From a candidate division FCPU426 bacterium (lineage in GTDB: Bacteria > Oederibacteriota > JAJYGY01 > DAIDJD01), in NCBI GenBank assembly GCA_027451505.1, contig DAIDJD010000143.1, positions 1 through 53,374 on the forward strand: a DNA stretch of 53,374 nt, given 5' to 3'. Shown here piece by piece: positions 20,191-53,374 of this stretch. Under the pieces are notes generated by a model. It was not told where the DNA came from and made no database searches. It worked only from the letters and a program-made list of their open reading frames with translations. Every line of letters starts with the position of its first letter. The first letter of the stretch is position 1. The translations under genes were made by a program, and so were the position numbers.

Positions 20191-20233
20191 CAGGAACCTC
20201 CCAGGGCCGAAGTGAGTGGATGCGGCTGAAATG

Positions 20234-20262
20234 ATGATAGGTAGGGGGCGGCACAAAATCAA
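20234..20262 (-). promoter_or_regulatory. Sigma70-type promoter for the TPR gene
   Basis: Minus strand TTGATT-N17-TATCAT. Confidence 0.6.
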
Positions 20263-20428
20263 GGAGCGCATGAAACGTCGTTCCAAAAAAGTTGCGCCCG
20301 TGATCCCGCAGGGGGAAGGGCCGGGGCCCCTCCCGGCTCAGCGGATTCCGGATGCCGATGACCCCGAACGCTGAAGCCTAAAAATGCAGAAAGCCCGAGT
20401 CTCGAGAGACAGGGGCTGCTGCTTTTTT

Positions 20429-20502
20429 TAGCGCCTACGGGGCTCGAACCCGTGATCTCCGCCTTGAGAGGGCGGCGTCCTAACCAGCTAGACCAAGGCG
20501 CC
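20429..20502 (-). tRNA. tRNA-Glu (anticodon CTC); CCA not encoded
   Basis: GGCGCCTTGGTCTAGCTGGTTAGGACGCCGCCCTCTCAAGGCGGAGATCACGGGTTCGAGCCCCGTAGGCGCTA folds as a cloverleaf with anticodon loop CT-CTC-AA and T-loop GTTCGAG. Confidence 0.97.
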
Positions 20503-20641
20503 TCAGTTTTCCTTTGTGTCGCAAGGCTTTTGGCCCGCGTGGGGAAGCCAAAATGCCCGTGTGCGCCAGGACGGATGGCGTGGGAACGCAAATCCTGCCG
20601 ACGCACAGCGCCCCGGTTCAGAACCCAAACCAGGGGCGGAT

Positions 20642-20670
20642 ACCATACGGGAAGGGGGTGTTGGGGTCAA
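20642..20670 (-). promoter_or_regulatory. Putative sigma70 promoter for the tRNA-Glu transcript
   Basis: Minus strand TTGACC-N17-TATGGT about 140 nt upstream of the tRNA. Confidence 0.5.
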
Positions 20671-21028
20671 GGGATTTTGGGGAGTGGCAGGAGACACGCG
20701 CCACCTTGCCGCCAGTCCCCGTAGGTGCCGACTTCTTTAAGATCCTGCTTTAAGGCCGTGGTGCTTCATCAAGAACGCCCACACCCAGCGTGGAACCGCC
20801 GCTGGAATAGGGCGATGCCCCTCTTCCCACGAAATCCAGAATCTATTGAGACGCTAACAAGGTGCTACCAAACCCGCATTCGATTTCCTCCCCGAGCCCT
20901 TAAAGCCTTCGATTAAAGGCTCAAATCAAGTTCTGGCCACACATTGCGGGGCTGGGTTGGGATCCTTGGAAGGGTTGGGAAAGAAGGCTGGGCTTATTCC
21001 CGAAGGTGCGGAGTTTTGATTTTAAAGC

Positions 21029-21046
21029 TATATCATATATGATATA
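21029..21046. promoter_or_regulatory. Perfect 18-bp palindrome overlapping the -10 region; likely TA autorepression operator
   Basis: TATATCATA|TATGATATA overlaps TATGAT/TATAAT, 18 nt before the toxin ATG. Confidence 0.75.
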
Positions 21047-21064
21047 ATCATTCCGAGGAGACCC

Positions 21065-21406
21065 ATGGCAGGGTATCGGATCAAGGAATACCTACTCAAT
21101 GGCGAGAGCCCCTTCAGGCAATGGCTTGATGCGCTGGACAAGCCTGTTCGTATTCGGATCCAGGCCAGGATTCAACGATTCGAAGTGGGCAACCTGGGCA
21201 AAGGGCGACACTTTGCTTCTGGTCTCTGCGAAGCGATCCTGGATTTTGGACCTGGCTATCGGCTCTATTACGGTCTGCATGGGGACACTCTGGTTGTCCT
21301 CCTCTGCGGTGGTTCCAAGTCGGGACAACAGAGCGACATAGCCCGAGCAATGCAATACTGGGAAGACTACCTACAGGAGAAGGGCCATGCCCAAAAAGAG
21401 TGTTGA
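21065..21406 (+). CDS. Type II TA toxin, RelE/ParE superfamily (HigB-like addiction module killer protein)
   Basis: GESPFRQWLDAL...RIQRFEVGNLG...DFGPGYRLYY...LLCGGSKSGQQSDIARA; toxin-first arrangement. Confidence 0.92.
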   Translation: MAGYRIKEYLLNGESPFRQWLDALDKPVRIRIQARIQRFEVGNLGKGRHFASGLCEAILDFGPGYRLYYGLHGDTLVVLLCGGSKSGQQSDIARAMQYWEDYLQEKGHAQKEC

Positions 21407-21722
21407 TTGGAATGAGGGGCTGCTGGAGGACCTCAAGGACCCTGAATTCGCCAAGGGTTTTGTCCACGCTTGCCTGGAGGAGGGAATCCCCCTGAAGGTA
21501 GCCGTGGGCAAAGTTGTGAAGGCGCAGGGTTATTCTGCTGTAGCTCGCAGAATCCACATGGCGGTTCCAAATGTCATAAGGGCGGCTCAACCCAAGTCCA
21601 ACCCCACCCTTGAGACATTTGAAAAATTGATGGCTGGGGTAGGCTTGAAATTTGCCGCAGACTCTATTGGCGTCACCGGAGTCAAACGCAACGGTTCCCG
21701 CAGGTTGGCGAAAGCAATTTAA
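21387..21722 (+). CDS. Type II TA antitoxin (HTH, addiction module antidote)
   Basis: LKDPEFA...AVGKVVKAQGYSAVARR...NPTLETFEKLMAGVGLKF; overlaps the toxin by 20 nt. Confidence 0.88.
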   Translation: MPKKSVDWNEGLLEDLKDPEFAKGFVHACLEEGIPLKVAVGKVVKAQGYSAVARRIHMAVPNVIRAAQPKSNPTLETFEKLMAGVGLKFAADSIGVTGVKRNGSRRLAKAI

Positions 21723-21871
21723 ACGGGAGCCCCCTGAGGCTTGAGAACCTCCTCCCGCAGGATGTGGTCACAAACTTCCTTGGGTGTGCTTCCCCTGGCG
21801 TAGAGTCGGCGTGGGGGCTGGGCCGCGACGTTGTGGGAGAAGCCGACATTACGGCCGGGGGAAATGGGCGC

Positions 21872-22306
21872 TCACCAAGGCAGGGGCCGGTCGCGGATCG
21901 GGGCAGCGTCTTTGGGGATGTCCTTGAGGCGGGCCCCTCCGGCGCGTATGCAGATCCATTTCAGGGGCACCGGGCTCGTGGGCGCGCAGCGCCAAGTGCG
22001 CAGCACACCCTGGCCCACCCGCACTGCGGTGCCGGCCTTGACCGGAACGACCCGGTCGTCCAGACCCATCTCGCCCTCGCCCTCCAGGAACAAATAGAGC
22101 TCCTCCAGGACGGAATGGGAGTGCCAATAGTCGACGCCCTCGCCCGGGACGCGCGAATTGAGCGAGACCCCGAAGTATCCCAGGTCCATCTCGCGGTCCA
22201 CGAATTTTCGGCCCGGAGCCAGCGTTTGGGGGGAGTACCCGCCGAAGAAGGCGCCCCAGGACTCCATAGGCCCGAATTCCACAACTTGGTAATCCGATTC
22301 CGCCAT
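21872..22306 (-). CDS. Cupin domain protein
   Basis: WHSHSVLEELYLFLEGEGEMGLD...VPVKAGTAVRV. Confidence 0.88.
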   Translation of the reverse strand: MAESDYQVVEFGPMESWGAFFGGYSPQTLAPGRKFVDREMDLGYFGVSLNSRVPGEGVDYWHSHSVLEELYLFLEGEGEMGLDDRVVPVKAGTAVRVGQGVLRTWRCAPTSPVPLKWICIRAGGARLKDIPKDAAPIRDRPLPW

Positions 22307-32655: not shown

Positions 32656-32821
32656 AAGCGCTTTTTTCCTCCAGGGTCGGGGAGGACCAGCCTAACGCGG
32701 GCCCCCGCGTTCCGCAAGGCGGACCCCGGGGACGCGCCGCGCCAGGAAACGCCTCGCCAAAGTCCTCGCCCCTTTGCTACGATAACCGGGCCCAAAGCAA
32801 TTCCCACCCGAAGGAGCCCGC

Positions 32822-35050
32822 ATGCGGCCGTCCAAACGTTTCCTGCTGTTCGCCCTGGCCCTGGCCTTCACGGCCCGCCTGTCCGCAGACATCACCACGG
32901 TCTACAATTTCGAGCACGGCACGGACGGCTTCGACGGCAACACCTCGACCTCGACGCTGTGGGCAAGTTCGGGCCAGCACTCGCTCGCCATCGACGCCAC
33001 GGGCTCCACGGGGTGGAACCAGAACCTGGCGGTGAACGGGAGCAACAACGTCGACTGGACCCACGCGGTGGAGTTCCTCTGCGACGTGTACATGCCCGCG
33101 GGCACCAAGGCCGCGGCCACCTACGTGCAGTTCATCCCGACCTTCTCCGGACCGGTAAACAGCTTCTACCAAGCCGGCAAGGTGGACCTCGTCGACGGGG
33201 TCAACCACGTCGCCCTGAAGATCAACGGCTCTCAGATCACCACGCCCTGGAAGATCTACCTGATCCTCAACACCGGCGGGGCCATCCCCGGCAAGATCTA
33301 CGTCGACGACATCCGCATGCGCACCCCGGGCAAGCCCGGGCGCCTGACGCTGACCCTGCGCACCCCCTACGGGTCCCCGGTCCCGGGCGTGGTAGTGGCC
33401 GCGGGCACGGCAGCGGTGACCACGGATTCCGGGGGCCGGGCCGTGCTGGCCCTGCCCAGCGACAACTATGACGCCGAGGTGCTGGGGTCCGACGTCGTGG
33501 ACACGCCCTTCACGGCCCGCGTGCCCGTCGGCGACGGCAGCCAGGAGGTGACGGTCTCGTACCTTCCGCGCACGCCCCCGCGCCGGGCCCAAGTGGTGGT
33601 CCGCGCCGGGTCCGTCCTGCGCCCCTTCGACGCCGACCATGTCTACGGCCACAACCTGGCCATGTGGAGCGGCCTGGATCCCTTCACCAACCCGATCCAA
33701 AAGGCCAAGCTGCTGGCCATACGCACCCGCCTCATCCGCCTGCCCGGCGGCGAATACGGCAACCAATGGAACTGGCGCACGGGCGGCATCTTCAAGCAGA
33801 CCGCCGATGCGCCCCTGGACTGGACGCCCGAGGCCAACTGGGACGTCTGGAAGACCTTCCTCCACGGCCTGGGCCCCCAGACCGAGGCCCTCATGATCCT
33901 CAACGTGTTCCAGAGCACGCCGCAGGAACAGGTGGCTTGGATCCGCAACGCCTTGGACTCGGGCCTGAAGGTCCCCTACGTGGAGTTGGGCAACGAGCCC
34001 GACCTGGACCCGAACCGCTACATGTCCGGGGTCCCGGGCGGCTCCACGGTGCTGTCGAACTACGTGCGCACGGTGCTGCCCTTCGCCCGGGCCGTGCGCG
34101 CCGCCTTCCCGAACATCAAGATCCTGGGACCGGTGATCGCCCAGATCGACGACCCGGTCTGCCCGGGCAAGCACCCCTGGGACTGCTACCAGTACGTCAA
34201 CGGGGAGCAGGTCGACAACACCCGGGACAACTGGATCCACAAATTCCTGGCCCTCTATTCCAGCCTGGGCGGCCCCCTGGACGGGGTGAGCTTCCACAGC
34301 TACCCGTTCTACGAGAAGTGGGACAACCACCCCACCGGGTACTGGGACGCCACGCAGGCCTGGACCAAGATCCCCAAGCTGGTCCCCTGGATGCGGCGCT
34401 ATGAGAAGTGGATGGCCCAGTACTACCCCTCCCAGGCCGGCCGCATGGAACTGGGCATGACCGAGTTCAACATGCAGGTCGACGAGACCTGGGCCACGGC
34501 GGCGGTGGAGGACGCGGTGTGGAACGCGGCCTACCTCGGCGAGTTCATCCGGGGCGGCGGCACCCTGGCCACGGACTGGGACATCAACACCGAGAAGCCC
34601 ACGGACGGCGGCGGCCACGGGTTCCTGGACCCCAACAACGACCCCACCCGCCCCTACGCCGAACGCGCCCGGTACTGGCTGTATAAGATGATGGCCAACA
34701 ACTTCACCGGGGATCTGGTGCGCTCCACGAGCAGCTCCCCCATGGTGGAGGTCTACGCCGCCAGCGACCGGGGACGGGTGACGGTCCTGCTCATCAACCA
34801 CGACGAGAACCGCCCCGCGGACGCGACGCTCTACGTCGCCGGCGCCGGGGACGCCACCCGGCTCAGGGTGATGAGCCTCTCGCGGCGCAACTACCTGTGG
34901 AGCAAGGTCCTCTACCGCGCCGTGCTCAACCTGGACCCCACCGTCCCCCCGCAGGTCAAGGTCTACGGGGTCCCGCCCGAGCGCTCGGGCTGGCGCGTCT
35001 ACACCCAGCACCTCGACCCGATGAGCGTGACCATGGCGGTGTTCGAATAG
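32822..35050 (+). CDS. Secreted multidomain glycoside hydrolase (clan GH-A-like)
   Basis: Signal peptide; N-terminal beta-sandwich ending IYVDDI; Ig-like linker domain; IRLPGG, ELGNEPD (acid/base), GVSFHSYP, GMTEFN (nucleophile); C-terminal beta domain. Confidence 0.82.
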   Translation: MRPSKRFLLFALALAFTARLSADITTVYNFEHGTDGFDGNTSTSTLWASSGQHSLAIDATGSTGWNQNLAVNGSNNVDWTHAVEFLCDVYMPAGTKAAATYVQFIPTFSGPVNSFYQAGKVDLVDGVNHVALKINGSQITTPWKIYLILNTGGAIPGKIYVDDIRMRTPGKPGRLTLTLRTPYGSPVPGVVVAAGTAAVTTDSGGRAVLALPSDNYDAEVLGSDVVDTPFTARVPVGDGSQEVTVSYLPRTPPRRAQVVVRAGSVLRPFDADHVYGHNLAMWSGLDPFTNPIQKAKLLAIRTRLIRLPGGEYGNQWNWRTGGIFKQTADAPLDWTPEANWDVWKTFLHGLGPQTEALMILNVFQSTPQEQVAWIRNALDSGLKVPYVELGNEPDLDPNRYMSGVPGGSTVLSNYVRTVLPFARAVRAAFPNIKILGPVIAQIDDPVCPGKHPWDCYQYVNGEQVDNTRDNWIHKFLALYSSLGGPLDGVSFHSYPFYEKWDNHPTGYWDATQAWTKIPKLVPWMRRYEKWMAQYYPSQAGRMELGMTEFNMQVDETWATAAVEDAVWNAAYLGEFIRGGGTLATDWDINTEKPTDGGGHGFLDPNNDPTRPYAERARYWLYKMMANNFTGDLVRSTSSSPMVEVYAASDRGRVTVLLINHDENRPADATLYVAGAGDATRLRVMSLSRRNYLWSKVLYRAVLNLDPTVPPQVKVYGVPPERSGWRVYTQHLDPMSVTMAVFE

Positions 35051-42228: not shown

Positions 42229-44169
42229 ATGTGTGGCATCGCCGGGGCCTTCGCCCCCCAACCGAATCCCCCGGATCTGCGCCCGGGCCTGGAGCGCGCC
42301 CTGGTCCGCCTTGAGCGGCGGGGCCCGGACGGCGGCGGCGTGGCCTCGGGCAAGGGCTGGGCCTTCGGGCACCGCCGCCTGGCGATCATCGACCTAGCGG
42401 GCGGGGCCCAGCCCTTCACCGGCCCCGGCGGCGCGGCCCTGACCTACAACGGCGAACTCTACAACACCCGCGAGCTGCGCGAGGAACTGCGCTCCGCGGG
42501 CTGGACCTTCACGACCGCCTCGGACACCGAGGTCGTGCTCAAGGCCTGGCTGGCCTGGGGGCCGGAATGCCTGCCGCGCTTCAACGGGATGTTCGCCTTC
42601 GCCGTCTACGATCCCTCGCGCGACAGCGTCTTCCTGGCGCGGGACCACTTGGGGATCAAGCCCCTGTTCCACCACACGGGGCCGGTGGCCTTCCACTTCG
42701 CCTCGACGCTGGCGGCCCTGCTGGCGTTCCCCGGGGTGGACGCCGTGGCCGACCCGGTCGGGGTGTCCCACTACCTCTCCACGACCAAGGTGGTCCTGGG
42801 GACGCGGACCCTGATCCGCGGGGTCTCCTGCCTGGAGCCCGGAACCTGGATGGAGGTCCGCAGGGGGCGCCCGCCCTCGGCGCCGGCGCGATATTGGAGC
42901 CCGCCCGCCGTCTCCCCGGAGCCTCTTCCCTTCGCCGAGGCGGCGGCACGGGTCCGGGAACTGGTGGGGGACTCGGTCCGCCGCCAACTCGTCAGCGACG
43001 TGCCGTTGGGCGGCTTCCTCAGCGGCGGCCTCGATTCCACCGTCATCGCCTCCCTGGCGTCCCGCCACTCGCCGCGCCCCTACCACGCCTACAGCGTGGG
43101 CTACGCCGAGGGGTCCGACGCCTACCAGGAATGGGACTACGCCCGCGAGGCGGCCGCGGCCTATGGTCTGGCCTGCGACGTGATCCCGCTGCGGCGGGAG
43201 GACTATCCCGGGGACTGGCGCCTGCTCATCGCCGAGAAGGGGCAGCCCCTGAGCACCCCCAACGAGGTCGGCATCTACCGGCTGGCCCGGGCCCTGAAGT
43301 CGGATTCCACGGTGGCCCTCAGCGGCGAGGGCGCCGACGAGGTCTTCGGCGGGTACTCGGTGTATTTCTCGGCCCACGACTACGAGCGCTCGCGCGGCCT
43401 GGACCGGATGGCCCCCGAGGGCCGGGCGTCCCTGTCCGCGGCCCTCAAGCGCATGTACGGGACCGACCGCTTCGGGTCCTTGACCGACCACTTCATCAGG
43501 ACCGTGTTTTGGATGGGATCCGGGGCCAAATTCGCGCTGCTGCGTCCGCAATGGCGGGAGGCCTTGCGCGACGACGAGACCCTGTTGCGCCACTACCTGG
43601 GCCGTTTCGAGGACCTGCGCGACCTGAGCCCCTTCGACGCGTACCTGCGCATGATCCTGGAGAAGAACCTGGAGAACCTGCTGTTCCGCCTGGATTCCAG
43701 CACCATGGCGGCCTCCGTGGAGGGCCGCGTACCCTTCACCGACCCCCGCCTGGTTTCCCTGCTGTTCTCGCTGCCGGGGAGCTACAAGATGGCCTGGGCC
43801 CCGGGGGTGGCCGAGGAACAGCGCCTGGGCGTCAACACCGCGGAAGCCGAGGCCCAGGGATGGATCACGGGAAAACTGCTGCTGCGGGCCGCCTTCGCCG
43901 ATGCCGTGCCGGAACGCATCCTGAAGCGGCCCAAGATGAGCTTCCCGGTGCCCTTCAGGGAATGGTTCGCCGGTCCCATGAGGCCCCTGGTGGAGTCCCT
44001 CCTGCGTGAGAACCCCTGGGCCCGGGACTGGCTCGCCCCGGCCGCGGTGGACGCCCTGGTCGCCGGGTTGAACCAACCGCACCAGGCCCTGCTGGCCTGG
44101 CCCCTGGTGAATCTGTGCCTCTGGCAGCAAGAGTTTGGGGTGTCCTGGGGATCCGGGAACCCGAATTAG
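42229..44169 (+). CDS. asnB: Asparagine synthase (glutamine-hydrolysing) family amidotransferase
   Basis: N-terminal MCGIAG, HRRLAIID, YNGELYN, LSGGLDS, SGEGADEVFGGY, SVEGRVPF, RPKMSF. The substrate may not be Asp. Confidence 0.9.
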   Translation: MCGIAGAFAPQPNPPDLRPGLERALVRLERRGPDGGGVASGKGWAFGHRRLAIIDLAGGAQPFTGPGGAALTYNGELYNTRELREELRSAGWTFTTASDTEVVLKAWLAWGPECLPRFNGMFAFAVYDPSRDSVFLARDHLGIKPLFHHTGPVAFHFASTLAALLAFPGVDAVADPVGVSHYLSTTKVVLGTRTLIRGVSCLEPGTWMEVRRGRPPSAPARYWSPPAVSPEPLPFAEAAARVRELVGDSVRRQLVSDVPLGGFLSGGLDSTVIASLASRHSPRPYHAYSVGYAEGSDAYQEWDYAREAAAAYGLACDVIPLRREDYPGDWRLLIAEKGQPLSTPNEVGIYRLARALKSDSTVALSGEGADEVFGGYSVYFSAHDYERSRGLDRMAPEGRASLSAALKRMYGTDRFGSLTDHFIRTVFWMGSGAKFALLRPQWREALRDDETLLRHYLGRFEDLRDLSPFDAYLRMILEKNLENLLFRLDSSTMAASVEGRVPFTDPRLVSLLFSLPGSYKMAWAPGVAEEQRLGVNTAEAEAQGWITGKLLLRAAFADAVPERILKRPKMSFPVPFREWFAGPMRPLVESLLRENPWARDWLAPAAVDALVAGLNQPHQALLAWPLVNLCLWQQEFGVSWGSGNPN

Positions 44170-44285
44170 TCCGTTGACTTTACATCTGTCAAATCGATAT
44201 CCATCTCGGTCTATTTGCCGGAATGGTCTTTAAGTCGCTACGATTGACCAAAATGATTACATGACAATCGATTAATGACTTTCAT

Positions 44286-44314
44286 TTGACGAAATATCTG
44301 GGCGACTTTATAAT
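44286..44314 (+). promoter_or_regulatory. Near-consensus sigma70 promoter of the hdr/tusA/dsrE operon
   Basis: TTGACG (44286-44291), N17, TATAAT (44309-44314). Confidence 0.85.
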
Positions 44315-44321
44315 TCAGTTG

Positions 44322-44345
44322 TTAATAAATTAATTAATTTATTAA
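44322..44345. promoter_or_regulatory. Perfect 24-bp AT-only palindrome at the predicted start site; putative repressor operator
   Basis: TTAATAAATTAA|TTAATTTATTAA, 7 nt after the -10 box. Confidence 0.75.
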
Positions 44346-44371
44346 TTTAATCCTCCCCTACGGGGTGCGCC

Positions 44372-44782
44372 ATGACGGATGCTGCGACGACAAGGCCGAC
44401 GCAAGATCGGATCCTGATCCTCGCGACCCAGGCCAGCTCCTACCCCGGAGCCAACGCCGTGGGCCAGGCCCGGCTCCAGTACGCGCCCGACACCTACATC
44501 TTCAGGGTACCGGATCCGGTGATGTTCCCCGAAACGTTCTACCTGCGCCGTTTCGAGCGCGGCTTCGCCGGGATCATCGTCATGTCCAGCGGCTCCGACT
44601 GCCCCTATGAGGGGGCCTACGCCCGCCTCTCCCAACGGATCGCCCGCGTCTACGACCTGATGAAGGAACGCGGCATCCCCTCCTCCCGGCTCAAGCTCAC
44701 GACCATCTGCACCGTGTGCCGGGCCGCCTTCCTAAAGGAGATCGCCTCGATGCGCGAGGCCATCGCGGCCCCCACCGGCTGA
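44372..44782 (+). CDS. Divergent MvhD/FlpD-like protein
   Basis: SYPGANAVGQARLQY...FRVP...FERGFAGIIV...DCPY...GIPSSRLKL matches the MvhD pattern, but most [2Fe-2S] Cys are missing and a CTVC motif is present. Confidence 0.8.
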   Translation: MTDAATTRPTQDRILILATQASSYPGANAVGQARLQYAPDTYIFRVPDPVMFPETFYLRRFERGFAGIIVMSSGSDCPYEGAYARLSQRIARVYDLMKERGIPSSRLKLTTICTVCRAAFLKEIASMREAIAAPTG

Positions 44783-44844
44783 CAACGCCCCCCCCGCCCC
44801 TCCGGGGACGCCCCACGGCGGCCCCGCCCCCTTCGGAGAACGCC

Positions 44845-45093
44845 ATGCCAGAACTCAGCGAAATCAAGGCCGCCAAGACGGTGGACGCGCGCTCGATGGC
44901 CTGCCCCGGCCCCCTGCTGGAGGCCAAAAAGGCCGTCGGCGGGGTCCCGGTGGGCCAGGTCCTGGAGGTGCTCTCCGGGGACAAGGGCAGCCGCGAGGAC
45001 ATCCCCGCGTGGTGCCGCAAGATGGGGCACGAATTCCTCGGGTTCCTCGAACGCGACGGCCACGACAGCCTCTTCCTCATCCGCAAGAGGTAG
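44845..45093 (+). CDS. tusA: TusA family sulfur carrier protein
   Basis: VDARSMACPGPLL (CPxP), GQVLEVLSGD, DIPAWC...GHEF. Confidence 0.93.
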   Translation: MPELSEIKAAKTVDARSMACPGPLLEAKKAVGGVPVGQVLEVLSGDKGSREDIPAWCRKMGHEFLGFLERDGHDSLFLIRKR

Positions 45094-45095
45094 CC

Positions 45096-46427
45096 ATGAC
45101 GGCCTCAGCCACCGTTTCCGCCTCCGCCGCGACGCTGGACGTCGACGTCCTGGTGGTGGGCGGGGGGATCGCCGGGCTTCAGTCCGCGCTCGAGGCCGCC
45201 GAACAGGGGCGCAAGGTGCTGGTGGTGGAGCGCCAACCCAGCATCGGTGGGCGCATGATCAACCTGAGCAAGGTCTTCCCGACCCTGGACTGCGCCAGCT
45301 GCATCACCACGCCGCGCATGGCCTCCGCCGCCCACCACCCCAACATCACCATCCGCACGTACTCGGAACTGGGCCCCATCCGCCGGGAGGGACCCCGCTT
45401 CACCTCCACCCTGCGCCAGAAGGCCCGCTACGTCGACGAAGCGGCCTGCATCGGCTGCAAGCGCTGCGAGGAGGCCTGCCCCGTGTTCGTCCCGGACGAA
45501 TACGAGCACGCCCTGGGGGCCCGCAAGGCCATCCGCATCCCCTTCACCAACGCCATCCCCCAGACGGCCGTGCTGGACATGGACCACTGCACCCTGTGCG
45601 GCCTCTGCGCCAAGGCCTGCCCCACGGACTGCATCGACTTCCTCCAGGAGGACGCCGAGATCCCGGTGACGGCGGGGGCCGTGATCCTGGCGACCGGCCA
45701 CGAACTCACCAGCATGGCCGCGAAGCCGGAGTATGGCAGGGCCGCCCTCCCCAACGTGATCTCCCCCATGCAGGCCGAACGCCTGCTGGCGCCCCACGGC
45801 GCCTACGGGCGGGTCCTGCGGCCCTCGGACGGGAAGATTCCGGACTCCATCGCCTACGTGCAGTGCGCCGGCAGCCGCGACGCCAGCCTGGGCGTGCCCT
45901 ATTGCTCGCGCGTCTGCTGCATGTACGCGGTCAAGCAAGCCATGCTCCTTTCCGGCTCCCTGCCGGTGGCCGACATCACCATCTACTACATGGACATCCG
46001 GGCCTTCGGGAAGGGCTACGAACAGTTCGTGGCCAGCGCCCGCGCCATGGGCATCAATTTCGTGAAGGCCAAGGTCGCGCGCATCCGCGAGGACGCCGAC
46101 CACAATCCGATCGTCCGAATCGAGCGCCAGGAGGCCGGCGGAACCGTCGAGGAGGTGCGCCACGACTTGGTGGTGCTCTCCCTCGGCATGCTCCCAGGGG
46201 CCGACCCCGAACGGGAGGGCTTCGCCGGGGTGCTCCGGGACGCGGACGGCTTCGTGCGCACGCCGGAGGCCAAGCTGTCGCCCACGCTCACCGACGAACC
46301 GGGGATCTTCGTCGCCGGGACGGCGGCCGGGCCCAAGGACATCGTCGATTCCATCCAGGACGCCGGGGGCGCCGCCATGGAGGCCCTGCGCCACCTGCGT
46401 TCCAACGGACTCGAGGGGCGGCCATGA
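45096..46427 (+). CDS. hdrA: HdrA/QmoA-B-like FAD/FeS protein, copy 1
   Basis: GGGIAG, KVFPTLDCASC, inserted 2x[4Fe-4S] (CIGCKRCEEACP, CTLCGLCAKACP), QCAGSRD...YCSRVCCMY, DIRAFGKGYE, GPKDI. Confidence 0.92.
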   Translation: MTASATVSASAATLDVDVLVVGGGIAGLQSALEAAEQGRKVLVVERQPSIGGRMINLSKVFPTLDCASCITTPRMASAAHHPNITIRTYSELGPIRREGPRFTSTLRQKARYVDEAACIGCKRCEEACPVFVPDEYEHALGARKAIRIPFTNAIPQTAVLDMDHCTLCGLCAKACPTDCIDFLQEDAEIPVTAGAVILATGHELTSMAAKPEYGRAALPNVISPMQAERLLAPHGAYGRVLRPSDGKIPDSIAYVQCAGSRDASLGVPYCSRVCCMYAVKQAMLLSGSLPVADITIYYMDIRAFGKGYEQFVASARAMGINFVKAKVARIREDADHNPIVRIERQEAGGTVEEVRHDLVVLSLGMLPGADPEREGFAGVLRDADGFVRTPEAKLSPTLTDEPGIFVAGTAAGPKDIVDSIQDAGGAAMEALRHLRSNGLEGRP

Positions 46428-48205
46428 ACGGCCCAGGAACGGCCCCGGACTCCGGGCTGGGCGAGGAAACCGAGGACGTGCGCGTGGGCGTGTACGTGTG
46501 CCACTGCGGTGGGAACATCAGCGACGTGGTCGACGTGAAGGAACTCGCCGCCCTATCGGCGGAATACCCCCACGTCGTGGTCGCGAAGGACTACCCCTTC
46601 ATGTGTTCGGACCCGGGCCAGGCCCTGATCGTCGAGGACATCAAGGCGCACGGGGTCAACCGGGTGGTGGTGGCCTCCTGCGCCCCGGCCCTCCACGAGC
46701 AGACCTTCCGGCGCGCGCTCCAGCGCGGCGGCCTCAACCCCTACCTTTACGAACACGTCAACATCCGGGAGCAGGTGAGCTGGGTCCACAAGGCGGACCA
46801 CGCCGCGGCGACCCGCAAAAGCTTGGCCCTGGTCCGTGCGGGTATCGAAAAGGTGGTGCGGCAGGACCCCTTGGAGGCCCTGCGGGTCTCGGCCGAACGC
46901 CGGGTCGCGGTCATCGGCGGGGGCGTGGCCGGGATGAAGGCCGCCCTGGCGGCGGCCGGCGCGGGCCTCGCGGTGACCCTGTTCGAGAAGGGCCCGGCCC
47001 TGGGAGGGCGCCTGCCCGAACTGGGCCGGGTTTTCCCCACCGAAGACGAGGGGGCGGCCCTGTCCCGCCGCATGGAGGAGGAGGTGCGTTCCCAACCCGC
47101 CATCGAGGTACGGCTGGGCGCCGAGGTCCGCAGGGTGGACGGCTTCGTGGGACGCTTCAGCGTGGAGGCCGGGGACGGACCTCCGGTGAAGGCCGGGGCG
47201 CTCATCGTGGCCACCGGCTATGACCCCTACGCCCCGGCGCCCGGCGAATTCGGGGCGGGCGGCCCCCTCACCGTGACCTTGCCGGAATTCCGGGCCGCGC
47301 TTGAGGGGCTTACCGAGGGCCCCCTGCTCACCTGGAAGGGCCGCCCCATCCGGGACCTGGCCTTCATCCACTGCGTGGGCAGCCGCCAAGTGGAGGGGAT
47401 CCACGCGCCCCAGGCCGACGGCAAGGTCAACGACTACTGTTCGCGGGTCTGCTGCACCGCGACGCTGCAGACCGCCGAGCGGGTGCTCGACCGGCACCCC
47501 GGCACGCGCGTCTACGACTGCTATAGGGACATACGCACCTATGGCCGGGGCCACGAGGCCATCTACGAGCGCGCCGCGAGGAAGGGGACGCTCTTCTTCC
47601 GCTACCGGGAGGACGCCCCCCCGACCCTGGTGGAGGAGGGCGGGCGCGCGCGCCTGAGGGTCAAGGACGTCCTGACCTGGGACACCGAGGTGGACCTTCC
47701 CGTGGACTTGGTCGTCCTGGCCACCGGGATGGTCCCGCGGGACATAGGGGCCCTCGCCGACTCGCAGAAGCTGCCCCGGGGCGCCGACCGCTTCCTGCAG
47801 GAGGCCCACCCCAAGCTCAGGCCGGTGGAACTGGCCAACAACGGGATCTTCCTCGCCGGGACGGCCCAGGCGCCGATGACCGTGGACGAGGCCTGCGCCG
47901 CCGCCGGGGCCGCCGCGTCAAAGGCCGCCCAACTGCTCCTGCCGGGGGAAATCCAGCTCGACCCGTTCATCGTGGCCCTGAAGCCGGAGCGATGCGACGG
48001 CTGCGGGGCCTGCCTCGACGCCTGCTCCTACACGGGCTCGCTGACCCTCAGCGGGGAGGGTCCCGGGAGACGGGTGGAGGTGAACCCGGCCTTGTGCAAG
48101 GGCTGCGGCGCCTGCGTGGCGGTGTGCCCCACGCGGGCTTTGGATATCGCCGGCTGGGGCCTCGACCAGTTCGAGGCCATGGCCGACGCGATCGCAGCGG
48201 TCTGA
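46424..48205 (+). CDS. hdrA: HdrA/QmoA-B-like FAD/FeS protein, copy 2
   Basis: N-terminal VYVCHCGGNI...FMCS...ASCAP..HEQTF...NIREQ; GGGVAG; HCVGSR...YCSRVCC; HPKLRP; C-terminal CDGCGACLDAC and CKGCGACVAVCP. Confidence 0.92.
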   Translation: MNGPGTAPDSGLGEETEDVRVGVYVCHCGGNISDVVDVKELAALSAEYPHVVVAKDYPFMCSDPGQALIVEDIKAHGVNRVVVASCAPALHEQTFRRALQRGGLNPYLYEHVNIREQVSWVHKADHAAATRKSLALVRAGIEKVVRQDPLEALRVSAERRVAVIGGGVAGMKAALAAAGAGLAVTLFEKGPALGGRLPELGRVFPTEDEGAALSRRMEEEVRSQPAIEVRLGAEVRRVDGFVGRFSVEAGDGPPVKAGALIVATGYDPYAPAPGEFGAGGPLTVTLPEFRAALEGLTEGPLLTWKGRPIRDLAFIHCVGSRQVEGIHAPQADGKVNDYCSRVCCTATLQTAERVLDRHPGTRVYDCYRDIRTYGRGHEAIYERAARKGTLFFRYREDAPPTLVEEGGRARLRVKDVLTWDTEVDLPVDLVVLATGMVPRDIGALADSQKLPRGADRFLQEAHPKLRPVELANNGIFLAGTAQAPMTVDEACAAAGAAASKAAQLLLPGEIQLDPFIVALKPERCDGCGACLDACSYTGSLTLSGEGPGRRVEVNPALCKGCGACVAVCPTRALDIAGWGLDQFEAMADAIAAV

Positions 48206-48217
48206 AGGGGGAGGGCC

Positions 48218-48511
48218 ATGACCGTCGAGGGCATGAAGAAGGTCCAGGAACAGCTCAAGACCCTGCGCAAAAGGCGCGGGCCCGTGCCGGAGGCGCTGGC
48301 CGAATCGGTCAAATCCGTGGCGCGGGCCCAGGGCGCGGTGCTGGCCGCGCTGAAGGGGGGGCCCCGCACGGTCCCGGAGCTCTCCGCCTCCACGGGCCTG
48401 CCCGGCGCCGAAGTCCTCTGGAACGTGACCGCGCTGCGGAAGTACGGGCAGATCGACGACGGCCCGGCGCGGGACGGCTACCCCACCTATGCGCGAAAGG
48501 AACGGCCATGA
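48218..48511 (+). CDS. Small winged-helix-like protein
   Basis: VLAALKGGPRTVPELSASTGLPGAEVLWNVTALRKYG...DGYPTY; ATGA-coupled to the next gene. Confidence 0.7.
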   Translation: MTVEGMKKVQEQLKTLRKRRGPVPEALAESVKSVARAQGAVLAALKGGPRTVPELSASTGLPGAEVLWNVTALRKYGQIDDGPARDGYPTYARKERP

Positions 48512-49656
48512 GCGACGTGGTCGACGCGGGCCTGCTTCCCGAGCTCAGGTCCTACGGCGCCTTCGACATCTCGGCATGCTTCAACTGCGGCAACTGCTCG
48601 GCGGTCTGCCCGCTGTCCGACGGGGAGGGTTCCTTCCCGCGGAGGATGATCCGCCTGGGCCAACTCGGCCTGCGGGACCGCCTCCTCGCCGGCCGCGAGG
48701 CGTGGTTGTGCTACGCCTGCGGGGAATGCACCGCCACCTGCCCGCGCCAGGCCGGCCCCTCCGACTACATGGCGGCCTTGCGGCGGTGGTCGGCGGCCCG
48801 GCACGAGCCCACCGGCCTGGGCAGGCTTATGCACCGCGGAGCCTGGGGCGTCTCCGCCGTGACCCTCGGGCTGGGGGCGGCCCTGGCGGCGGCGCTCCTC
48901 ACCGTGCCGGCCCCCCCCTCGCCGCCCCAGTGGATCTTCCGCGCGGTGCCCTACGGCGCCATCCACGAGGTGGGTCTGGCGGTGTCCGCCCTCCTGGCCG
49001 TGTCCCTGGCGTGGTCCCTGGGCCGCTTCCTGCGCCGGGCCGACCCGGGATTCCGGTCGCTGTCGAGGCCGCTGGCCGACCACCGCGCCGCGGCCAAGGC
49101 GACCCTGCGGGAACTGGTCCAACTCCGCCGCTGGGCTCCGGCGGCGCCGGGGCGTGCCGACCCCGGTTCACCCCGGGCCGCGCACATGCTGATCGCGGGC
49201 GGGTTCATGGCCCTCCTGGCGGCGACCAGCCTGGACTTCGTCTTCATCTACCTGCTCAAGTTCGCCTCGTTCCCGCCGGCCCGCGTCCTGGGCACCCTGG
49301 GAGGCGCGGCCCTGCTCCTGGGCGTGAGCGCGGCCCTGCTGCGGCGCGCCCGGGCGGCGGACCCGGCCGTGCGCCGCAGCCACGCCGCGGACTGGTGGCT
49401 GCTGGGGGCCCTATGGTTCCTGGCGGTGAGCGGATTCTGGCTGGAGGCCGACGTGGGCCTGCGCGTCGCCGGGGCGTTCCAGGACGGGGTGCTGCTGCTG
49501 CATGTGGTGGCTGCCCTAGAGCTCATCCTGCTGTTGGGCTCCGGCAAACTGGCCCACGTCGTGTACCGTCCCCTCTCCCTTTACCTCCATTACTTGGACG
49601 GGGGATCCGCGTCCGCCGGGGGCTGCGGCGGGGCCGTTTCGAGGAGCGCGCCATGA
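48508..49656 (+). CDS. QmoC-like protein: HdrC-type 2x[4Fe-4S] domain fused to a membrane cytochrome b domain
   Basis: CFNCGNCSAVCP and WLCYACGECTATCP, then about 6 TM helices with His at IHE, AHM, LHV and KLAHVVYRP. Confidence 0.87.
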   Translation: MSDVVDAGLLPELRSYGAFDISACFNCGNCSAVCPLSDGEGSFPRRMIRLGQLGLRDRLLAGREAWLCYACGECTATCPRQAGPSDYMAALRRWSAARHEPTGLGRLMHRGAWGVSAVTLGLGAALAAALLTVPAPPSPPQWIFRAVPYGAIHEVGLAVSALLAVSLAWSLGRFLRRADPGFRSLSRPLADHRAAAKATLRELVQLRRWAPAAPGRADPGSPRAAHMLIAGGFMALLAATSLDFVFIYLLKFASFPPARVLGTLGGAALLLGVSAALLRRARAADPAVRRSHAADWWLLGALWFLAVSGFWLEADVGLRVAGAFQDGVLLLHVVAALELILLLGSGKLAHVVYRPLSLYLHYLDGGSASAGGCGGAVSRSAP

Positions 49657-50210
49657 GCACGTCGCCCGAAGAACTCGACCGCAAGGTCGCCGAACTGGAG
49701 GGCCGGCTTTCCCGCCTGGAGGGATCCGCGCCGGAGGACCGCCTCAGCATGGTGGTGATGAGCGGGGACCTGGACCACCTGCTGGCCGCGTTCATCATCG
49801 CCACCGGCGCCAGCGCCATGTTCGAGAAGGTGAGCATGTTCTTCACCTTCTGGGCCACGGCGGCGCTGCGCGACCCCAAACTGGCCCCGCCCCGCAAGGA
49901 CGTGATGGGAGCCGCCTTCGGCGCGCTGCTGCCGAAGGGGCCCCCCAAGTTGGGCCTTTCCCGGATGCACTTCTGCGGCCTGGGAACCTCCGTGCTGAAG
50001 CGCCTGATGAAGAGCAAGGGGGTGCGCTCCCTGGACGAACTGATCGCGCTGGCGGCGGAGGGGGGCGTGGAGATCTTCGTCTGCGAGATGAGCATGAACC
50101 TCATGGGCATGCGCCGCGAGGAGCTCATCGACTACCCCGGGTTGAAGCTCGCCGGGGTGGCCACCTTCCTCCAGCGGGCGGGAGCCTCCAAGGCGTCGCT
50201 GTTCATCTGA
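49653..50210 (+). CDS. DsrE/DsrF/DrsH-like (DsrE2-type) sulfurtransferase/peroxiredoxin-like protein
   Basis: SMVVMSGDLD...AFIIATGA...MFFTFW...LSRMHFCGLG...CEMSMNLMG...AGVATFL. Confidence 0.92.
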   Translation: MSTSPEELDRKVAELEGRLSRLEGSAPEDRLSMVVMSGDLDHLLAAFIIATGASAMFEKVSMFFTFWATAALRDPKLAPPRKDVMGAAFGALLPKGPPKLGLSRMHFCGLGTSVLKRLMKSKGVRSLDELIALAAEGGVEIFVCEMSMNLMGMRREELIDYPGLKLAGVATFLQRAGASKASLFI

Positions 50211-51006
50211 ACGCCCCTGGGACCGCGGGCGCCGCCTCCGCGCCCGCCCCCGCGGGGGCGTCGGGGGCCCGGTTGAGCCTGCTCCGACGCAGGCGCCAAT
50301 CCGGCATCCGGCGGTCCAGGATGGCCCGGAAACGGGGCCCGTGGGTTCGGACCAAAAGGTGGGCCCATTCGTGCGTGAGGATGTATTCCAGGGCCTCCGG
50401 GGGCCGGCGGGCGAGTTCCAGGGCCAGGGTGATGGTCCGGGTGCGTATCGCGCAGCTCCCCCAGCGGGTGCGCATGGCGCGCACCCTTATCCGCGCCGCG
50501 TCCACCCCCAGGGCCTCCCGGAGCCCCGGCGCGAGCCGCAGGGCGGCGCCGACCAACTCCCTGGCGTACCAGCGCTCCACGGCCGCCGCGCGGATCCCCT
50601 GAGGCGCCGCTTCGGGAACCCGCAAATCCAGGATCCCATCGACCGCGGCTTCGGCCCGGGCCCGCGATCCGCCCGCGCGCACCCGCAGGATCCAGCGGGC
50701 GCCCCAGACCGTGAGAGCCTCCCCGTCCCGGTATTGGGGAGGGGACACCGGCGGCGGAAGGGCCCGACGCCGGCGAAGCACCCACTCCCGATGGTCCAGG
50801 ATGAAACTGAGGATGGACGCATCGGTGGCCCGCAGCGGGGCCGAAACGTGCAGGGCCCCATCGGGCGGGCGCAGGCTGAGGCGCAGGGTGCGGATGGCCT
50901 TGCGCCGGACCGTGGCGCTCAGGTCGCCGGCGGCCAGCGTGTAGGGGATCCCGGCGCGCGGCGCGGGTTCCGGGCTTCGCGGTGATGGGAAGGGCCAGGG
51001 GGGCAT
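50203..51006 (-). CDS. YgjP/SprT-like (M48-type) zinc metallohydrolase; start uncertain
   Basis: VSAP, MRTRWGSC, YILTHEWAHL, HGPRF. Confidence 0.9.
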   Translation of the reverse strand: MPPWPFPSPRSPEPAPRAGIPYTLAAGDLSATVRRKAIRTLRLSLRPPDGALHVSAPLRATDASILSFILDHREWVLRRRRALPPPVSPPQYRDGEALTVWGARWILRVRAGGSRARAEAAVDGILDLRVPEAAPQGIRAAAVERWYARELVGAALRLAPGLREALGVDAARIRVRAMRTRWGSCAIRTRTITLALELARRPPEALEYILTHEWAHLLVRTHGPRFRAILDRRMPDWRLRRSRLNRAPDAPAGAGAEAAPAVPGAFR

Positions 51007-51953: not shown

Positions 51954-53374
51954 TCAACGCACCACCGCGACCTTCAGGAAAGACCGCGAAAGGGGCGCCC
52001 CTGAGGCGCCCGCCCGGGAGAACTCCAGCACCGCGATGTACACGCCCGAGGCCAGCCCCGAGGTCGGGAAGATCAACGCGGCGGTTCCCCCCAACTCCCG
52101 CTCCACCAGGGAGCCCCGAACGTCATAAAGCAGGCCCTCCACCAAACCCCCCGCGACCGGGTTGTAGTCCACGGTCAGCGGCGTCCCGGCCATGGCTGGA
52201 TTGGGGCCGAACTTCAGGCCCGACAGGCCCCCCTGGTCCACGGACACCACATTGAAGCTCTTGGCGATCACGACGCGGCTGGCCCCTTCCTCGGAGAAGT
52301 AGACCAAGTCGGCGGTGTAGACGCCCGAGGCCACGGGGGAACCCGCGTCGCTGAGCCCGTCCCAGGAGGTCTGGGCCGGCGCGCCCCCCGAGGCCTCCGA
52401 AAGGTCGAACACCAGGGGATTTCCGGCCTTCCCCGTGGCCGGGTCATAAGCGGGCGCCCAGGTGGTGACGGGAAGGCTGAAGCCCACCACCCCGCCGGCG
52501 GAGGTCGGCAAGGTCAGCCTTCGGACGACCTCCCCCGAACTGTCGTAGATCACCAGGGAATTCTGGGGCCCTTCGTCGATGACCTGGATCGACCGGTCCA
52601 GGGTGGTGGCCTGGCCGAAGGTGTTCAGGTACTGGACCTCGATTTCGTAGATGCCGGAGGCCACCAACTGCCCGCCGCTGTTGAGCGCGGACCACACCAA
52701 CACGTCCGAGGCCGAACCGCTGGGCATCTTCAAGTATCCCGGGAAGGTGATGTGGACGCTGCCGTCGGGCCCCTGCGACCCGCCGTTGATGACCGTGGAA
52801 CTGAGCGTCAACTGGCCCGGGACGTATTCCGCGCTGCCGTTGAAGAGGGTATCCACCAACTCGCCGGCGCTGTTGTAGACGCCCACGGTCAATTGGTCGC
52901 CGCCGGGGAACGGGGTCGGCGACGCCGTGGGGCTGTCCGACGCAGTGGGGCTGGCCGTATAGGTCGGGCTGGGCGTGGGCGTGGGGCTGCGGGTCGCTGT
53001 GTCCGTGACCGTCGGCGTCGAGGTCCAGGATGGCGTGGCGGTGGGGGTCGCCGATGGGCTCGGCGAGTCGGTGAAGGTGGCCGACTTCGTGGCCGTGTCC
53101 GACGCCGTGAAACTCGCCGTGGGCGTGGCCGTGGCCGTGGCCGTGGGCGAGTCGGTGGAAGTGGAGGACTGGGTGGCCGTGTCCGACGCCGTGAAGCTCG
53201 CCGTGGGCGTCGCCGTGGCCGTGGCCGTGGGTGAATCGGTGGAGGTGGAGGACTGGGTGGCCGTTTCCGACGGCGTGAAGCTCGCCGTCCACGACGCCGT
53301 GGGCGTGGAGGTCGGGGTGCCCGTGGCCGTGTCCGAGGACGTGAAGGTCGGGGTGGCCGTGGGGGAGGACGTCG
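51954..53374 (-). CDS. C-terminal part of a large extracellular protein: Thr/Ser/Pro-rich stalk plus FlgD-Ig/T9SS-CTD-like domains (5' end outside the window)
   Basis: The frame of the 51954..52892 ORF appears to stay open upstream as TATRSPTPTPSPTYTASPT...; three VYNSAGELV/IYDSSGEVV/LYDVRGSLV ... ASGxY modules follow. Confidence 0.85.
   Translation of the reverse strand, partial: TSSPTATPTFTSSDTATGTPTSTPTASWTASFTPSETATQSSTSTDSPTATATATPTASFTASDTATQSSTSTDSPTATATATPTASFTASDTATKSATFTDSPSPSATPTATPSWTSTPTVTDTATRSPTPTPSPTYTASPTASDSPTASPTPFPGGDQLTVGVYNSAGELVDTLFNGSAEYVPGQLTLSSTVINGGSQGPDGSVHITFPGYLKMPSGSASDVLVWSALNSGGQLVASGIYEIEVQYLNTFGQATTLDRSIQVIDEGPQNSLVIYDSSGEVVRRLTLPTSAGGVVGFSLPVTTWAPAYDPATGKAGNPLVFDLSEASGGAPAQTSWDGLSDAGSPVASGVYTADLVYFSEEGASRVVIAKSFNVVSVDQGGLSGLKFGPNPAMAGTPLTVDYNPVAGGLVEGLLYDVRGSLVERELGGTAALIFPTSGLASGVYIAVLEFSRAGASGAPLSRSFLKVAVVR
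53089..53290 (-). repeat. 84-bp tandem coding repeat (about 2.4 copies)
   Basis: Units begin at 53089, 53173 and 53257 and encode TASFTASDTATQSSTSTDSPTATATATP. Confidence 0.88.

Follow-up and report, generated by a model that had tools for sequence, protein, structure and literature searches.

Qmo- and Hdr-type complexes hold a central place in sulfate respiration and in methanogenesis. A type II QmoABC has been described that is closer to HdrA than the canonical complex, occurs with or without Apr/Dsr and is functionally uncharacterised (in the pertinent sections of PMC10504309 and PMC8477390; after Chernyh et al. 2020). The same section of PMC10504309 places type II Qmo in two characterised sulfate reducers and acknowledges its partner in organisms that have neither Apr nor Dsr as an open point. 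In a soluble setting, Pcar_0429 of Pelobacter carbinolicus fuses flavoprotein, rhodanese, TusA and DsrE parts, and the portion of PMC3543383 that deals with it proposes an S0 reductase. Here we analyse a seven-gene operon at positions 44372–50210 of a 53,374-nucleotide stretch of DNA (hereafter the window; contig DAIDJD010000143.1, or C143) from a candidate division FCPU426 bacterium, whose metagenome-assembled genome (MAG; GCA_027451505.1) comprises 2.36 Mb in 252 contigs and is 89.6% complete with 1.4% contamination. The operon encodes an FlpD/MvhD-like protein, the sulfur carrier TusA, two HdrA-type flavoproteins (HdrA1 and HdrA2), a small winged-helix protein, a QmoC-like membrane subunit and a DsrE2-family sulfur carrier. 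The interpretation that we favour, at a probability of about 0.5, is that FlpD, HdrA1, HdrA2 and QmoC form a Qmo-like complex that links menaquinone, a low-potential soluble electron carrier and sulfane sulfur carried on TusA and DsrE2.

The seven open reading frames (ORFs) lie head to tail on the + strand. The FlpD/MvhD-like protein (44372–44782, 136 aa; PF02662, 58 bits) is followed by TusA (44845–45093, 82 aa), the QmoA-like flavoprotein HdrA1 (45096–46427, 443 aa), the QmoB-like flavoprotein HdrA2 (46424–48205, 593 aa), the winged-helix protein (48218–48511, 97 aa), the QmoC-like subunit (48508–49656, 382 aa) and the DsrE2-family protein (49653–50210, 185 aa). A sequence-only reading of the window had already proposed seven co-oriented genes with these identities, and ORFs, Pfam and NCBIfam bear it out; ATGA start/stop overlaps are present at 46424, 48508 and 49653, as it had stated. 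It had further spoken of several junctions with gaps of 12 nt or less, which holds for HdrA1, whose ATG at 45096 lies 2 nt past the TusA stop, and for the 12 nt between HdrA2 and the winged-helix gene, but not for FlpD and TusA, whose genes are 62 nt apart, so that not every junction is this short. Its statement that genes of the apr, sat, dsr and hdrB kinds are absent from the window stands as well; beyond the operon none appeared by Pfam on 10 of 28 codon-bias-filtered frames, which returned housekeeping families only, or among the other neighbours by eye.

This gene set recurs well outside the source organism. A scan with a QmoC alignment across one genome per GTDB species gave at least 551 confirmed relatives, of which the best 80 loci, from 80 species-level genomes in 15 named phyla, were kept. 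Synteny was counted by tblastn with the seven window proteins, and the 62 loci that extend 5 kb or more upstream of QmoC were taken as assessable. Among these, TusA, HdrA1 and HdrA2 were each found in 62 and FlpD in 61, and all four genes stand before QmoC in 61, a recurrence as a block that is far more than chance would give. A DsrE2-family ORF abuts the block in 65 of the 80 loci, either directly after QmoC (37) or directly before TusA (28); it lies elsewhere in the locus in four and was not found in 11, several of them on truncated contigs. Clustering of every ORF of 90 aa or more in the loci and their 10-kb flanks recovered no apr, dsrAB or sat family around the best 80 loci, and no other family came near the frequencies of the core genes there. 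Within the phylum of the window, a QmoC-like match (E <= 1e-20) was obtained in 5 of 40 other genomes; the four genomes of the same family gave no such match. The module behaves as a patchy accessory unit that is self-contained.

We then consider the genomes in which the module sits. No aprA, dsrA, dsrC or sat was found in the source MAG, nor any HdrB-type protein, its CCG domains being confined to a GlcF-like protein and a FAD-oxidase fusion; because the assembly is 89.6% complete, these absences are unproven. The one strong GcvH match of this genome, considered as an LbpA, was rejected because of its position between gcvT and gcvP. Separately, a 475-aa ORF on another contig (G000:C98:4439-5668) gave weak matches to [NiFe]-hydrogenase large subunits (51 and 39 bits). 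Genome-wide family searches covered 50 of the 80 loci, picked to keep every phylum and drop near-duplicates, with the other 30 left out. Apart from one genome with a split copy, aprA scored over its cut-off in 11 of these 50 and was missing at cut-off in 39, the split copy counted among the latter, and dsrA likewise exceeded its cut-off in 11. HdrB (TIGR03288) reached its cut-off in none of the 50, with weaker HdrB-like matches (E <= 1e-10) in 32 and none at that level in 18. The carriers that do possess aprA hold a second, classical aprBA–qmoABC locus, whose proteins are 24–37% identical to those of the window. The module is independent of Apr/Dsr.

These counts bear on an account in which the locus is plain type II QmoABC, connecting the quinone pool to an unlinked soluble partner (Apr-like or some other reductase), and in which TusA and DsrE2 are co-transcribed passengers that serve sulfur trafficking in general. 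The subunit architecture, which is that of QmoABC with a split QmoB, would suit such an account, as would the occurrence of type II Qmo in the two sulfate reducers reported in the section of PMC10504309 cited above, and HdrB-like proteins are encoded elsewhere in the 32 carrier genomes just mentioned. Against this, TusA in 62 of 62 loci and an abutting DsrE2 in 65 of 80 are too constant for passengers, and no other enzyme family recurs in the flanks. The 39 carriers in which aprA is missing at cut-off (one of them with the split copy), the failure to find it in the source MAG and the 18 carriers with no HdrB-like match point the same way, and we regard the passenger account as quite unlikely.

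The QmoC-like subunit combines an N-terminal HdrC-type 2x[4Fe-4S] domain with about six transmembrane helices, as judged from a hydropathy scan, and conserved histidines for haem b. It matches NCBIfam qmoC over model positions 5–358 of 360 with 162 bits, under the equivalog cut-off of 300. Eight cysteines together with H153, H226, H332 and H350 are invariant in its homologues (n = 36), and the eight cysteines, H226, H332 and H350 are common to the window protein and to all eight of eight canonical aprBA-linked QmoC proteins. We placed the family in an unrooted tree of 91 rows, estimated by quick IQ-TREE searching, in which some branches are long; it includes nine of the 11 apr regions that were fetched, as L084 gave a fragment only and L087 ends before qmoC. 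A branch of length 0.98, with a Shimodaira–Hasegawa-like approximate likelihood ratio test (SH-aLRT) support of 100, has the nine apr-linked QmoC proteins and one stray copy from locus L060 on one side and the window protein with the other 80 QmoC-like proteins of the loci on the other. On this topology the QmoC-like proteins of these loci constitute a clade separate from aprBA-linked QmoC. The stray copy is a second QmoC-like gene of L060 (4954-6499, - strand), beside an ArsR-type gene and on the opposite strand of a 7.2-kb contig; it groups with aprBA-linked QmoC, and no apr gene is visible on that contig.

The sequence-only reading had staked its case for a module that stands on its own, apart from canonical Qmo and the sulfur-oxidising Hdr system (sHdr), on such comparisons. 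It would have given way had aprAB or hdrB turned up elsewhere in the genome and the proteins also clustered in canonical QmoABC or HdrABC clades, and the window QmoC-like protein instead falls outside the aprBA-linked group (SH-aLRT 100); it would likewise have given way had tusA and dsrE2 shown no linkage with the hdrA pair, and that linkage is conserved across 15 named phyla. The whole-genome search that it had called for recovered none of aprA, dsrA, dsrC, sat and HdrB from the source MAG at its stated completeness. Gene content, the QmoC clade and linkage all support such a separate, self-contained module.

Both flavoproteins keep the FAD site and the HdrA-type four-cysteine motif, and beyond these their cofactor domains are divided between them. 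An inserted 2x[4Fe-4S] ferredoxin domain is peculiar to HdrA1, as is a CxxC at 67/70 (HdrA1 residue numbers count from 45093 and are one too high, the true ATG being at 45096). HdrA2 alone carries the HdrA N-terminal cysteine domain and a C-terminal 2x[4Fe-4S] ferredoxin domain, after which it ends without a fused MvhD domain. The two look like complementary halves of an HdrA dimer, a reading that leans on the 5ODC structure. By sequence both are nearer HdrA than Qmo. HdrA1 scores 461 bits against positions 133–561 of the NCBIfam model HdrA2 and our HdrA2 scores 482 bits against the same model, the best solved relative of this second flavoprotein being a methanogen HdrA (8rvu_a, 424 bits); comparison with canonical QmoA and QmoB yields at best 234 and 245 bits, versus 424–482 bits against HdrA. 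Identity to aprBA-linked QmoA is 32–37% for HdrA1, and identity to canonical QmoB, a protein of 729–826 aa with an MvhD-like domain fused C-terminally, is 24–32% for HdrA2. The FlpD-like protein and HdrA2 together correspond to a split QmoB.

A variant of HdrA1 offers a clue to the soluble electron carrier. In seven Bacteroidota loci HdrA1 is about 915 aa long (family f30; for example L033:5205-7952), and its ferredoxin domain is split into two Fer4 halves by a GltD/NfnB-like module (Fer4_20 and Pyr_redox_2, residues 158–546). As this module sits inside the ferredoxin domain, NAD(P)H would be the direct partner in Bacteroidota and, by extension, ferredoxin the partner of the uninterrupted domain elsewhere.

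The FlpD-like protein aligns to the solved MvhD chains 9sw2_D and 5odc_D, with the N-terminal CxxC and the middle cysteine of those chains replaced. Across 61 family members the only invariant cysteines are C113 and C116, in the motif I-C-x-V-C (61 of 61), and five further cysteine positions come and go by lineage. This C-terminal CxxC is absent from MvhD, and it occurs in 0 of 11 MvhD-like domains of canonical QmoB aligned with the family, which keep four cysteines. In an AlphaFold2 (AF2) model with a predicted local distance difference test (pLDDT) score of 84.7, the CxxC lies between the strand at 107–111 and the helix at 117–132. We regard it as a candidate site of thiol/disulfide exchange in place of HdrB. 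The predicted-complex score for the FlpD-like protein with TusA was 0.01 against a mark of 0.32, which is evidence neither for nor against binding. Fused forms were also sought, in a Rosetta-stone search for longer proteins made with one family alignment, which gave one 452-aa call joining TusA, FlpD and the HdrA N-terminus (P0121) and several joining FlpD and HdrA1. P0121 and P0126 were not counted as real fusions; both switch midway to low-complexity Arg/Pro/Ala-rich sequence, for which reason we take them as frameshifted or read-through calls in high-G+C DNA. In a separate observation, one gene call on a 1.1-kb contig gives the metagenome protein P0137 (323 aa), in which a TauE/SafE membrane domain is fused to an FlpD-like domain of the family; such a fusion could be genuine or artefactual.

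Each of the two putative carriers offers one conserved thiol. TusA scores 77 bits against PF01206 (cut-off 28.6), and its Cys-Pro-Gly-Pro motif (C20, P21, G22, P23) is invariant among 64 sequences. The product of 49653–50210 exceeds the cut-off of PF13686 (DrsE_2) at 144 bits and reaches 74 bits against a cut-off of 210 for the NCBIfam DsrE2 model (NF047629); on these scores it would be a member of the DsrE2 family and not the named NF047629 equivalog. Its single invariant cysteine, C144, is kept in 79 of 79 sequences, and a solved relative, 3pnx_A, is named 'putative sulfurtransferase DsrE' (E = 1.9e-23). For the TusA/YedF-like protein a selenium role was considered and dropped, as it had nothing but weak YedF scores in NCBIfam to support it. 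The source genome also holds a second, partial TusA-like match within a 199-aa frame (G000:C9:8479-8589).

Taken together, these features suggest how the favoured Qmo-like complex might work. The FlpD-like protein, an HdrA1/HdrA2 heterodimer and QmoC would assemble at the membrane, with the ArsR-like winged-helix protein possibly a regulator or a further subunit. Menaquinone would be contacted through the two haems b of QmoC and its HdrC-like clusters, and the low-potential soluble carrier through the inserted ferredoxin domain of HdrA1, this carrier being ferredoxin here and NAD(P)H in Bacteroidota. TusA and DsrE2, as single-cysteine carriers, would be the presumed protein substrates: a persulfide on TusA would be attacked by the DsrE2 thiol, or the reverse, giving H2S and a TusA-S-S-DsrE2 heterodisulfide, which the complex would re-reduce, possibly through the FlpD-like CxxC. 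Midpoint potentials are about -270 mV for S0/HS-, -74 mV for menaquinone, -450 mV for ferredoxin and -320 mV for NAD. A confurcating or bifurcating mode would be thermodynamically sensible, because S0/HS- lies midway between menaquinone and ferredoxin. One may go further and postulate a new energy-conserving heterodisulfide reductase that takes the TusA–DsrE2 disulfide as its substrate, uses the CxxC for HdrB and, through HdrA1/HdrA2, confurcates or bifurcates electrons among menaquinone, ferredoxin (NAD(P)H in Bacteroidota) and sulfur; in this full form we consider the proposal unlikely.

The genes that accompany the module in other genomes are informative both for this scheme and for its competitors. 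The recurrent extras are all concerned with sulfur trafficking, thiol/disulfide chemistry or regulation, and include thioredoxin in eight sources, rhodanese in seven, TauE/SafE in six, cysteine desulfurase and DsrC in four each, and a Crp/Fnr regulator in 11 Bacteroidota loci; in the Anaerolineae locus L067, a cysteine desulfurase follows DsrE2. Five Chloroflexota loci (L057, L073, L075, L077 and L080) have, at about 11–19 kb in locus coordinates, rhodanese, methyltransferases, TauE/SafE and a second ArsR–DsrE2–TusA set downstream. Four other Chloroflexota loci have a PntAB transhydrogenase instead.

The Chloroflexota arrangement is among the points that speak for the oxidative direction, in which sulfide or low-molecular-weight persulfide would be converted to carrier-bound sulfane sulfur and electrons would pass to menaquinone, and possibly to ferredoxin by bifurcation, as an entry similar to sulfide:quinone oxidoreductase (SQR) or as detoxification with rhodanese and TauE. 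In those loci the rhodanese, TauE/SafE and second ArsR–TusA–DsrE2 set fall within 10 kb of the module. The source genome encodes a haem-copper oxidase and has one weak molybdopterin match, so that no Psr/Phs/Ttr-type reductase is evident in it; ArsR-type regulators stand upstream of the module in 31 sources; and electrons enter the methanogen complex (5ODC) at the MvhD position. The same genome has yielded no dsrA, dsrC, aprA, sat or HdrB-type CCG protein to take sulfane sulfur on to sulfite or sulfate, and the cysteine desulfurase, thioredoxin, Crp/Fnr and NAD(P)H module seen in strict-anaerobe lineages fit a reductive role better. On balance, we hold the oxidative direction to be unlikely and yet a serious rival.

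A different alternative is raised by three Bacteroidota loci (L025, L032 and L033), where four co-directional genes lie directly upstream of dsrE2-tusA-flpD-hdrA1-hdrA2-qmoC (L033:320-3737). They encode a DsrC with both C-terminal cysteines (115 bits), a DsrK/HdrD-like Fer4 and CCG protein, a 210-aa protein with five transmembrane helices and no Pfam family, and a class-V aminotransferase that is a cysteine desulfurase; dsrA was not found in the L033 genome. In a motif scan of the flanks these were the only loci with CCG proteins near the cluster, the match in L082 adjoining a FAD-linked oxidase. In Escherichia coli, sulfur is relayed in the order IscS–TusA–TusBCD–TusE. A cysteine desulfurase and a DsrC/TusE-family protein beside DsrE2 and TusA recall that order, and one may ask whether the module is a biosynthetic or homeostatic relay, bringing cysteine-derived sulfur to tRNA or cofactor thiolation or buffering persulfide, with the flavoprotein complex as reductant supply only. 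Machinery as heavy as a dihaem cytochrome b anchor plus two HdrA flavoproteins with about nine Fe-S clusters is out of proportion to such a task, however; the Bacteroidota DsrC, having both C-terminal cysteines, is of the dissimilatory type; and the patchy distribution within the phylum and family of the window argues against housekeeping. We judge a relay function highly improbable.

Several considerations weigh directly on the complex that we favour, and the proposal must be read cautiously in their light. No biochemical, genetic or expression datum was found for any member of the family. The complex contains no CCG/HdrB-type disulfide-reducing site, which makes the catalytic site a conjecture. 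The FlpD-like cysteines outside the CxxC differ between lineages, most of which place four to five cysteines in neighbouring loops of the predicted structure, and the CxxC may for this reason supply plain ligands to an altered Fe-S cluster instead of acting as a redox dithiol. Given the DsrK-like CCG protein and DsrC of the three Bacteroidota loci, the core complex may be incapable of reducing sulfur species by itself; in the source organism, a partner could sit on DNA that the incomplete MAG has not assembled. The direction of electron flow is open to the oxidative role discussed above, both for the haem-copper oxidase and for the Chloroflexota rhodanese and TauE neighbours, which are as in sulfide-oxidising or detoxifying operons. 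Two further claims of the sequence-only reading stand in part for these reasons. Its description of the operon as lacking HdrB is correct for the core operon and does not extend to L025, L032 and L033, with their DsrK/HdrD-like CCG protein. Its proposal that the quinone pool is linked to persulfide or disulfide chemistry on TusA and DsrE2 agrees with the gene content and with the neighbours and is, as far as the chemistry goes, an inference from them.

A sigma-70-like promoter, TTGACG-17-TATAAT (44286-44314, + strand), matches the consensus at 11 of 12 positions; this is a consensus match only, and in a scan of 43900–50500 it was the single site, with 0.4 expected in shuffled sequence, in keeping with the single strong promoter that had been claimed for the operon. 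It lies in a 202-nt intergenic leader of 36% G+C, where the window as a whole has about 71%. Between the -10 box and the first ATG is a perfect 13/13 overlapping palindrome, TTAATAAATTAAT / ATTAATTTATTAA (44322-44345), a candidate operator. The palindrome is AT-only, and AT-rich sequence forms palindromes easily; it could be the operator of the ArsR-like protein encoded within the operon or a chance product of AT-rich DNA. In the closest relative, L004, a different 7-4-7 inverted repeat was seen by eye at the same place upstream.

The candidate regulator is the 97-aa winged-helix protein, whose gene precedes QmoC in 54 of the 62 assessable loci. Its Pfam helix-turn-helix (HTH) matches are sub-threshold (HTH_20, 18.9 bits versus a cut-off of 27), and its predicted fold is ArsR/SmtB-like: the AF2 model has a pLDDT of 94, its best Foldseek matches are ArsR/SmtB-family chains (query-normalised template-modelling score, TMq, ~0.54; E from 4.6e-4), with BigR and SqrR farther down the list, and its closest Atlas clusters (score 0.96) bear the name ArsR family. 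BigR and SqrR sense persulfide via cysteine. The 97-aa protein has no cysteine at all and for this reason cannot sense persulfide as they do; it may bind the leader palindrome as a predicted regulator or serve as a structural subunit. Separate ArsR-type regulators, found in the 31 sources noted above and mostly directly upstream of TusA, form a family (f9) in which, of the paired sensory cysteines of BigR and SqrR, one occurs in 23 of 37 and the second position varies.

The genes that flank the operon in the window are housekeeping genes unrelated to its seven. Read by eye, the 5' neighbour is an asparagine-synthase-like ORF, and on the 3' side lie a convergent metallopeptidase-like ORF, which shares the final 8 nt of the operon, and a PPK2-like ORF; a scan found no intrinsic terminator-like site past 50210. 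Farther out are genes for DnaX, a MiaB-like protein, RNase J, aconitase, IMPDH, thiolase and others. A signal recognition particle (SRP) RNA lies just upstream of dnaX (2756-2842, - strand), and a tRNA-Glu (CTC) (20429-20502, - strand) at the edge of the 2-kb bin with the lowest G+C (20001-22000, 0.59). A 754-aa frame at 32786-35050 (+ strand) has strong coding bias, with a G+C content at third codon positions (GC3) of 0.95, and matched no Pfam family at E <= 1e-6. In the product of the open-ended ORF at 51954-53372 (- strand), a long stretch of Thr/Pro/Ser-rich repeats precedes a globular C-terminal part; by eye, it looks like a secreted or cell-surface protein. A look-up of sequencing runs returned four DNA runs from one study (best share 0.47) and listed no RNA run.

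If the favoured complex exists, its interest would lie first in the open question of type II Qmo, for which the co-encoded TusA and DsrE2 represent a concrete candidate partner and the CxxC a candidate catalytic motif. Heterotrophs, fermenters and sulfate reducers of many phyla carry the module as a mobile, self-contained unit. If carrier-bound sulfane sulfur is reduced or oxidised at the quinone pool, many organisms scored as having no dissimilatory sulfur genes would join cryptic sulfur cycling, annotation as 'heterodisulfide reductase' or 'QmoC' would need a new category, and the long-debated electron confurcation by Qmo would become testable on a substrate simpler than APS (adenosine 5'-phosphosulfate) reductase. 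Were the full heterodisulfide-reductase proposal true, it would amount to Dsr-, Apr-, Psr- and HdrB-independent respiration of sulfane sulfur in at least 15 phyla, and the Bacteroidota version, with its in-operon cysteine desulfurase, would be respiration on the sulfur atom of cysteine.

It remains to set the module against the systems it most resembles. With canonical QmoABC of sulfate reducers and Chlorobi it shares two adjacent HdrA-like flavoproteins, an MvhD-like module within the system and a QmoC made of an HdrC-like 2x[4Fe-4S] domain and a dihaem cytochrome b. It differs in that the MvhD-like part is a free gene with degenerate cysteine ligands and a new invariant CxxC, in that aprBA linkage is lacking and QmoC falls under the NCBIfam cut-off and beyond the SH-aLRT-100 branch, and in that its operon takes in TusA and DsrE2 along with a winged-helix gene. 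As in type II QmoABC, the QmoA/B-like subunits of the window are nearer to HdrA than to QmoAB and carriers occur with or without Apr/Dsr; the sections of PMC10504309 and PMC8477390 that describe type II QmoABC make no mention of TusA, DsrE2, a free MvhD-like protein or a winged-helix gene. By description the module appears to fit type II QmoABC, of which the proteins of V. moutnovskia and A. degensii are published examples.

Methanogen HdrABC–MvhAGD, a heterodisulfide reductase that bifurcates electrons, shares with the module the HdrA fold and cluster motifs, an HdrC-like domain, an MvhD-like protein and the logic of three partners. Unlike it, the module has neither HdrB (CCG) nor hydrogenase, its HdrC is fused to a cytochrome b anchor, its HdrA is split into two complementary paralogues, and its FlpD-like protein lacks the canonical [2Fe-2S] cysteine ligands of MvhD (versus 9sw2_D and 5odc_D). 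The sHdr–LbpA system, in the portion of PMC11094781 that describes it, likewise surrounds an Hdr-type flavoprotein with TusA and DsrE-family carriers, whereas the module has no sHdrB1/B2/C1/C2 and no LbpA and would be membrane-bound via QmoC. The part of PMC3543383 on Pcar_0429 provides the nearest chemical precedent, with a flavoprotein, TusA-like and DsrE-like parts and a proposed sequence from persulfide to disulfide plus H2S and then re-reduction; that protein, which belongs to the pyridine-nucleotide-disulfide oxidoreductase class, is described there as a single soluble NADH enzyme, whereas the module consists of separate proteins, with HdrA-type flavoproteins carrying many Fe-S clusters and a quinone-linked anchor. 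DsrMK(JOP)–DsrC resembles it as a membrane cytochrome b and Fe-S module acting on a protein-bound sulfur or disulfide substrate, yet the core operon has no CCG protein of this kind and no DsrC, and neither was found in the source genome. A full-text literature search retrieved no paper describing this gene set, with the caveat that Chernyh et al. 2020 or the supplements of PMC10504309 may show the TusA/DsrE2 linkage. The parts of the module are familiar, and what is new is the constant coupling to TusA and DsrE2, together with an MvhD module that is split and cysteine-remodelled and a lack of dependence on Apr, Dsr and HdrB.

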